From the NCBI RefSeq assembly GCF_003334815.1, contig NZ_QOWO01000002.1: 64,000 nucleotides of DNA; one strand, 5' to 3'. Below, in pieces: positions 19,646-19,951 of the stretch (position 1 is the stretch's first letter; every line of letters starts with the position of its first letter). The DNA is from Escherichia coli (GTDB lineage Bacteria; Pseudomonadota; Gammaproteobacteria; Enterobacterales; Enterobacteriaceae). A program made the translations under genes and the position numbers. The notes under the pieces were generated by a model. That model saw only the letters and a program-made list of their open reading frames with translations, was not told the origin of the DNA and did no database searches.

Positions 19646-19951
19646 TTAGCGTGTAGTGGACGTGGTGGTTGAGGTGTTATGAGAACCGCCATCGCCACTG
19701 TCATTTGCTGCAACAACTGCCAACGTCGCCACACCAACAGCCGTTGCCACACCGACAACTGTCGCCGTGCCGACAGCGCCAGCAGCCACGCCACCAGTGG
19801 TAGTAGCAGTCGTGGTTGCGCCGGTAGTGGTCGTTGTGGTGCCAGTAGTACCCGTCGTTGCCTCGGTCCCGTTTGTTGCTTCAGGGGCAGCAAACGCAGC
19901 TGGCGTCGTCAACATGAAGGCCATAAGGATTGCAGAAAGCTTGTGTTTCAT
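19646..19951 (-). CDS. gfcA: threonine-rich small inner membrane protein, first gene of the gfc operon
   Basis: ORF 19646..19969; 101-aa product MKHKLSAILMAFMLTTPAAFA... with a long Thr/Gly/Ala/Val low-complexity tract. Confidence 0.8.
   Translation of the reverse strand: MKHKLSAILMAFMLTTPAAFAAPEATNGTEATTGTTGTTTTTTGATTTATTTGGVAAGAVGTATVVGVATAVGVATLAVVAANDSGDGGSHNTSTTTSTTR

Follow-up and report, generated by a model that had tools for sequence, protein, structure and literature searches.

The threonine-rich capsule protein gene gfcA of Escherichia coli keeps a nearly constant length, with rare in-frame indels and spurious antisense reading frames

Although it encodes a protein of very low complexity, gfcA is 306 nt long in more than 99% of the Escherichia coli genomes that carry it, and its length varies from strain to strain only through rare, in-frame, lineage-restricted alleles. 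The gene was examined in a 64,000-nt stretch of E. coli DNA (contig NZ_QOWO01000002.1 of assembly GCF_003334815.1), hereafter the window. A first-pass annotation of this window had described a threonine-rich gfcA tract mirrored by antisense open reading frames (ORFs), and had suggested that its imperfect codon repeats could differ in length between strains. The gene, its threonine richness and its operon are already annotated and described in the literature. Here, we analyse the length, alternative reading frames and conserved parts of gfcA.

The ORF listing and translation place gfcA on the minus strand of the window at 19646..19951, as a 306-nt coding sequence with a 101-aa product (MKHKLSAILMAFMLTTPAAFAAPEATNGTEATTGTTGTTTTTTGATTTATTTGGVAAGAVGTATVVGVATAVGVATLAVVAANDSGDGGSHNTSTTTSTTR). 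Nucleotide identity to gfcA of K-12 MG1655 and of dozens of annotated genomes is 100% over 306 nt, which bears out the first-pass naming, and the gene occupies the same place ahead of gfcBCDE-etp-etk as in K-12. We are therefore highly confident of its identity as gfcA, with which the group 4 (O-antigen) capsule operon begins. A longer minus-strand ORF (19646..19969), with an in-frame ATG upstream at 19969, encloses the gene; the start at 19951 is favoured because it is preceded by an AAGGA motif, and the RefSeq annotation of gfcA is likewise a 306-nt coding sequence. The surrounding features are listed below, with gene names taken from the ORF listing and matching RefSeq records.

19958..19962, minus strand: Shine-Dalgarno-like AAGGA, read from the sequence, 6 nt 5' of the annotated ATG
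18895..19539, minus strand: gfcB, directly downstream of gfcA
18152..18898, minus strand: gfcC
16056..18152, minus strand: gfcD
20393..20605: cspH, upstream of gfcA

An Rfam search returned nothing overlapping gfcA. A weak match to the cspA thermoregulator RNA family was seen at 20356..20700 (minus strand), over cspH and its leader. At 18.3 bits (E = 0.037), against a gathering score of 78, this match is not significant and can plausibly be ascribed to paralogue similarity, since cspH is a cspA-family gene. In the 106-nt spacer between gfcA and gfcB, a hairpin (CCCGGU-UGCGAUAUUCGU-ACCGGG) lies at 19583..19606 on the minus strand, with a U-run about 15 nt beyond. Given the reported very high expression of gfcA, the hairpin might act as a stabiliser of the gfcA mRNA or as a partial terminator. 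A role as an attenuator was considered and dropped, because the fold scored z = -0.87 against shuffles and a consensus scan returned no terminator.

We also noted insertion sequences upstream of gfcA. K-12, its derivatives and some other laboratory or laboratory-like strains carry IS1D at the site corresponding to window positions 19976..19984, with a 9-bp target duplication, 25 nt 5' of the gfcA ATG. In contrast to K-12, with which it shares all 306 nt of gfcA, the window has no IS1 there; the leader and promoter region of the gfc operon are therefore intact, and the DNA does not derive from a standard K-12 strain. Both genomes with a 291-nt gfcA allele (see below) carry IS5 about 105 nt upstream of gfcA (loci L001, 1196.., and L006, 1..396), and in strain EC20 gfcA is replaced entirely by IS1A (L003, 1775..2472). 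The gfcA-cspH intergenic region looks like a recurrent target of insertion sequences that silence the capsule operon.

The product of gfcA is dominated by four residues (30 Thr, 20 Ala, 13 Gly and 9 Val of 101), which together make up 71% of the protein, Thr alone contributing 30%; the low complexity described by the first-pass annotation is thus confirmed. In the mature protein Thr reaches 35%, compared to a background of 5.5% in the long ORFs of the window (binomial P = 1e-15), and the highest Thr fraction among 17,445 background windows of 80 aa was 17.5%. The Thr bias of GfcA is far outside chance. ACC, ACG, GGT and GCC had been named as the prevailing codons. This is correct for ACG (10) and ACC (9), whereas GGT (5) and especially GCC (2) rank below GCA (8), GCT (7) and GGC (7). 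Threonine itself is written with all four ACN codons, the remainder being 7 ACT and 4 ACA. Four parts of the product can be distinguished.

19889..19951, minus strand: Sec/SPI signal peptide, residues 1-21, MKHKLSAILMAFMLTTPAAFA, with an A-F-A cleavage motif
19796..19888, minus strand: Thr-rich low-complexity tract, residues 22-52, APEATNGTEATTGTTGTTTTTTGATTTATTT, predicted to be disordered; the length-variable part
19709..19795, minus strand: Gly/Ala/Val/Thr hydrophobic segment, residues 53-81, GGVAAGAVGTATVVGVATAVGVATLAVVA; the best-conserved part
19646..19708, minus strand: polar C-terminal tail, residues 82-101 plus the stop codon, ANDSGDGGSHNTSTTTSTTR

The signal peptide is also listed as 21 residues in UniProt (P75885), GfcA has been reported to have high SignalP scores (PMC10278209), and in our alignment the signal peptide is kept in all orthologues. 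Within the Thr tract, sequence entropy is 1.2-2.2 bits per 20-aa window and AlphaFold2 pLDDT is below 50. The AlphaFold2 model of the whole protein, built from a 9-sequence alignment, has a mean pLDDT of 46.8 and consists of coil apart from helices at residues 2-14 and 57-84, the latter of low confidence. This low-confidence, mostly-coil model is in keeping with the literature, in which GfcA is "predicted to be natively unstructured" (PMC8346858). The Kyte-Doolittle maximum over 19 residues is 2.16, at residues 64-82, and is compatible with, but no proof of, a membrane anchor, so that the hydrophobic segment is best called an uncertain candidate for one. Previous work described GfcA as a 101-aa protein with 30% Thr that is either in the inner membrane or secreted (PMC8592465). 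The annotated product name claims the inner membrane, a placement on which the hydropathy profile and the low-confidence helix bear only indirectly.

To place the gene in the wider species, 5,426 complete E. coli genomes were searched. A 706-nt query centred on gfcA matched 3,684 of them, a figure to which the "distant" search mode added none, while the coding sequence alone matched 3,608, with at least 80% coverage in 3,592. Even in sensitive mode, no gfcA-gfcB junction was detected in 1,742-1,818 of the 5,426 genomes, or roughly one in three. Identity to the window allele was at least 99% in 2,512 genomes and 95-99% in 1,069; only 27 fell below 95%, 26 of them at 90-95% and one at 80-90%. 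Plasmid-labelled records accounted for five of the gfcA-locus matches, and two copies were present in a few genomes.

Lengths were determined from five stratified, evenly spaced samples comprising about 190 distinct genomes from all identity classes, together with the counts in each identity band. All sampled rows gave a gfcA of 306 nt with the exception of eight variant genomes. Full-coverage rows in the evenly spaced samples spanned exactly the length of the query, with one exception (NZ_OY754834.1), and in K-12 and related strains the span was that of the query plus a 777-nt IS1 insertion. A further 38 genomes with divergent alleles all had 306 nt. Using each variant-length allele as a query gave the following counts.

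291-nt allele, 96 aa: 15-nt deletion, 2 genomes
324-nt allele, 107 aa: 18-nt tandem duplication, 5 genomes
327-nt allele, 108 aa: 21-nt tandem duplication on a different SNP background, 1 genome

Carriers of the 324-nt allele were four O169:H41-type ETEC and one further ETEC isolate, and the 327-nt allele, a singleton, could be an assembly error. Length variants thus amount to about 0.2% (8 of 3,592), every one of them in frame. The ceiling for indels of at least 15 nt is 27 of 3,592 genomes, while for indels of 3-12 nt in the 95-99% identity band the limit comes from sampling alone and is roughly 2% at most. The expected strain-to-strain variability is therefore real in eight genomes with in-frame indels and does not extend to the more than 99% of carriers that have 306 nt; gfcA length across strains is nearly, though not strictly, invariant. 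These natural alleles, which differ by -5, +6 and +7 aa, are now documented, and they and the conserved parts of the protein could guide mutagenesis. A word-indexed protein search with GfcA was abandoned as a source of length statistics, as all its hits were frameshifted, truncated or from E. albertii, and an exact look-up of the canonical 101-aa and the 107-aa GfcA in a collection of 15 billion proteins found neither.

Alignment of the 291-, 324- and 327-nt alleles showed that all three indels map to a single zone.

19817..19850, minus strand: indel zone

The 15-nt deletion removes 19817..19831 (ACCACTACCGGCGCA), between two ACCAC direct repeats, while the 18-nt and 21-nt insertions are tandem duplications of the ACTACTGGCACCACAAC(G) region at about 19830..19850. 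The zone coincides with the only array that Tandem Repeats Finder reported in gfcA, which has a 21-nt period, 2.3 copies and a 74% match (19802..19849). Each of the three indels changes the length by a multiple of 3, and the net difference in length to E. albertii is likewise divisible by 3.

Three indel alleles that arose independently within 34 nt, overlapping an imperfect 21-nt-period repeat and bearing the signature of slippage (a deletion flanked by 5-nt direct repeats, insertions that are tandem duplications), could be taken to mean that the Thr tract is a contingency locus, in which frequent slipped-strand mispairing alters length or frame and so switches or tunes capsule expression between strains. 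Frameshifted 109-aa GfcA products in public protein sets would fit such a role. We nevertheless judge it very improbable: just 8 of 3,592 genomes differ in length, without a single change of frame; the tract has neither a homopolymer nor a perfect short repeat; the 324-nt allele, found within a single ETEC lineage of O169:H41 type, probably goes back to one inherited event; and inactivation of the gfc locus, where seen, is due to insertion sequences. The longest exact direct repeat in the coding sequence is 8 nt. Because Thr is written with a mix of all four ACN codons, no long exact repeat arises, and replication slippage is in turn infrequent. Low complexity of a protein thus does not entail instability of its DNA, as mixed synonymous codons leave no slippage-prone repeat. 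We conclude that gfcA is not a contingency locus or a hypervariable or phase-variable repeat, and that rare indels of whole codons are tolerated. A further idea, that codons have been scrambled under selection against repeats, was dropped, since synonymous resamples commonly have a longest repeat of similar size, so that 8 nt is not unusually short (P = 0.19-0.28).

The same composition accounts for the alternative frames across the gene. Both plus-strand ORFs named in the first-pass annotation were found in the ORF listing, as was a third open frame that it had not mentioned.

19679..19993, plus strand: spurious antisense ORF of 104 aa, a codon-aligned mirror of gfcA (phase 0)
19767..20075, plus strand: spurious antisense ORF of 102 aa (phase 1), whose wobble position coincides with that of gfcA
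19621..19893, minus strand: open +1 sense-strand frame of 90 aa

In phase 0, antisense stops arise only from the sense codons TTA, CTA and TCA, and in phase 1 an antisense stop requires an A at the second position of a sense codon, that is, a codon for Asn, Lys, Asp, Glu, His, Gln or Tyr. The Thr tract contains no codon with A at position 2, and 84% of codons begin with A or G, with C as the second base in 55%. The amino-acid bias of GfcA forces the use of (A/G)-C/G/T-N codons, and this codon composition alone leaves the two antisense frames and the +1 sense frame open across the tract. When synonymous codons were redrawn for the same protein and stops were counted in the two antisense frames, the resampled mean was 1.42 for the phase-0 frame (1 observed) and 1.00 for the phase-1 frame (2 observed), and about 21% of the resamples had no antisense stop. 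By comparison, ordinary genes in the window have on average 2.9-4.6 stops per 306 nt in these antisense frames.

Substitutions among E. coli alleles provide a second line of evidence. Five 306-nt alleles have 22 variable sites between them, 18 of which fall at codon position 3 of gfcA. In a comparison with the most divergent allele, 12 changes are synonymous and 3 non-synonymous in the gfcA frame, whereas reading them in the frame of ORF 19679..19993 gives 2 synonymous changes against 13 non-synonymous ones. As judged from these sequence comparisons, the allelic substitutions fit the gfcA frame and reject ORF 19679..19993. For ORF 19767..20075 the corresponding counts (13 synonymous, 3 non-synonymous) do not discriminate, as its wobble position is common to gfcA, and this ORF is rejected on its composition and the absence of homologues. 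None of the three alternative-frame products matched an NCBIfam family.

That either plus-strand ORF is a genuine antisense gene overlapping gfcA is, in our view, scarcely credible; 19767..20075 would be the more plausible of the two. The phase-1 antisense frame does remain open over gfcA in alleles of E. coli and also in E. albertii and Escherichia sp. MOD1, and its substitution ratio looks favourable, but both properties are forced, by the need for A at position 2 and by the wobble position common with gfcA; the compositional rule likewise explains why this ORF persists in the latter two. ORF 19679..19993 has a GAGG four nucleotides 5' of its ATG; against this stand its unfavourable substitutions and an extra stop in two other sequences. 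In addition, the antisense products are low-complexity mirror peptides (poly-Val/Pro/Ala or rich in Cys/Arg/Ser) with no family match, the K-12 IS1 at 19976..19984 cuts both ORFs, and no sigma-70-like promoter was detected on the plus strand near them. The plus-strand ORFs are compositional artefacts and imply no antisense gene, in line with the first-pass annotation, which had called them spurious. More generally, long ORFs antisense to low-complexity genes rich in Thr, Ala, Gly and Val codons should be discounted. We also observed that two 109-aa "GfcA" variants in public protein sets (P0008 and P0011) switch into the 19621..19893 (minus strand) frame, and that others are fused to downstream or upstream sequence (P0001, 170 aa; P0004, 136 aa). 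Such entries may be either true frameshift alleles or assembly errors.

Next to its constancy within E. coli, we examined the gene between species, using loci seeded with GfcB (one genome per species, 5 loci, which inform on architecture and not on statistics) together with protein hits. The lengths of the GfcA-type products encoded ahead of gfcB or yjbF homologues are given below.

Escherichia sp. MOD1: 101 aa
E. albertii, three sequences: 96, 95 and 94 aa, counted from the MKHKL start
Cedecea: 86 aa
Citrobacter sp.: 97 aa
Metagenomic homologue P0033: 94 aa from the MKSRL start of its signal peptide; a YjbF-family gene follows
K-12 YjbE: 80 aa

Lineages of E. albertii thus differ by one codon in gfcA, and the database entry for P0033 is 151 aa long with an upstream extension. 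In the alignment one plan is shared. A signal peptide leads into a low-complexity tract; next come a Gly/Ala/Val/Ile hydrophobic segment and an (N/S)D(S/N)GDG-like motif, and the protein closes with a Thr-rich tail in which T-R is the usual ending. The low-complexity tract ranges from about 12 to about 36 residues and is Thr-, Ser/Ala- or Pro/Gln-rich. The hydrophobic segment is conserved in Escherichia, Cedecea, Citrobacter and the metagenomic homologue, and the NDSGDG-Thr tail is also conserved between species. On the alignment, the tract is the apparently plastic part of the protein in evolution and the C-terminal half the conserved part.

In all six loci examined, distant ones included, a small signal-peptide ORF lies ahead of the gfcB/yjbF homologue. 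One such ORF was noted in a metagenome-assembled gammaproteobacterial genome (L012, 1512..1862), where it precedes a GfcB homologue of 32% identity; its product has a G/A/V hydrophobic segment and a Thr-rich C-terminus. The pairing of a small low-complexity protein with a YjbF-family lipoprotein therefore reaches well beyond the Enterobacterales, although it is invisible to sequence searches. GfcA itself belongs to no significant Pfam or NCBIfam family and had no match among PDB chains in a sequence search. K-12 YjbE matches Pfam PF11106 at 5.5e-33, and GfcA gave no hit to the same HMM at E<=10; BLASTP of GfcA against YjbE gave no match. A profile search of 1.84 billion representatives recovered just 14 relatives, YjbE not among them. 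The GfcA family is nearly invisible to sequence search.

GfcA has been called "entirely uncharacterized" (PMC11494523). Nevertheless, a gfcA mutant of EPEC is unencapsulated, and gfcA was the most highly expressed of the surface-structure genes measured in EPEC (PMC3853201). The O-antigen capsule phenotype disappears when any of the gfc genes is lost (PMC8592465, citing Peleg 2005). The organization of the protein suggests how it might work. The Sec pathway would export GfcA, and its signal peptide would be removed behind AFA, at residue 21. The Thr tract would serve as a disordered spacer, tolerant of gains or losses of a few residues. An interaction with the membrane or with GfcB, GfcC and GfcD may be the task of the conserved hydrophobic segment and tail, which could in this way explain why capsule assembly needs gfcA alongside these three proteins. 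We infer this division into spacer and core from conservation only.

Alternatively, GfcA may be a mobile substrate and not a static inner-membrane protein, with the Thr tract O-glycosylated with O-antigen units and with GfcB and GfcC handing the protein over to GfcD, a two-barrel outer-membrane protein; GfcA would in that case be the protein that anchors or primes the group 4 capsule. An O-glycan acceptor and export through GfcD were put forward as speculation by Larson et al. 2021 (PMC8592465). GfcB has a LolA-like fold, and the N-terminal barrel of GfcD/YjbH is predicted to belong to the FapF family, an exporter of unfolded protein (PMC8346858). The recurrence of a small signal-peptide ORF of the same architecture in 6/6 loci, and the top expression of gfcA among surface-structure genes in EPEC, also speak in its favour. 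Neither glycosylation nor export of GfcA has been reported in the literature, however, and the supposed acceptor is the least conserved part of the protein, being Ser/Ala- or Pro/Gln-rich or very short in homologues. This poor conservation weakens the reading of the tract as an O-glycan acceptor, and we regard the idea of a mobile substrate as unlikely.

A bolder version, to which we give slightly less credence still, is that GfcA, and YjbE by analogy, is a small disordered protein and an exported client of GfcB, GfcC and GfcD: its hydroxyl-rich tract would bear O-antigen chains, and the LolA-like GfcB would recognise its conserved hydrophobic segment and tail, which would either pass through the FapF-like barrel of GfcD or dock on it, anchoring the group 4 capsule. 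If this were true, GfcA would be the long-sought anchor of this capsule, and the -5, +6 and +7 aa alleles would be natural experiments on spacer or acceptor length. We prefer the more modest reading of a length-tolerant spacer joined to a conserved C-terminal core.

Finally, GfcA can be compared to three further known systems. One is YjbE, encoded in the paralogous yjbEFGH exopolysaccharide operon. Like gfcA, yjbE is the first gene of its operon and lies ahead of a gene for a GfcB/YjbF-family lipoprotein, and its product follows the same plan: a signal peptide that ends in A-x-A and is followed by AP, a hydroxyl/Ala-rich low-complexity tract, a short AVGVA hydrophobic patch and a GDG...TTTTT tail. 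The C-terminal 30 residues of the two proteins align with a Smith-Waterman z of 4.8, a score reached by none of 1000 composition-preserving shuffles, and only in these residues does the alignment beat the shuffles. In contrast to the Thr-rich GfcA, YjbE is Ser-rich, 80 aa long, and has a hydrophobic stretch too short for a membrane span. The tract of GfcA also resembles the Ser/Thr-rich disordered linkers of secreted and surface proteins in its low entropy, predicted disorder, drift in length and composition, and tolerance of in-frame indels. Unlike such linkers, it accounts for some 40% of a mature protein that is itself very small, and its flanks consist only of a hydrophobic segment and a 20-aa tail. 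With simple-sequence contingency loci, gfcA has in common a repetitive-looking tract in a surface-polysaccharide gene and a few slippage-type indels; it differs from them in having no perfect repeat, a polymorphism of about 0.2% and, in complete genomes, in-frame changes only.
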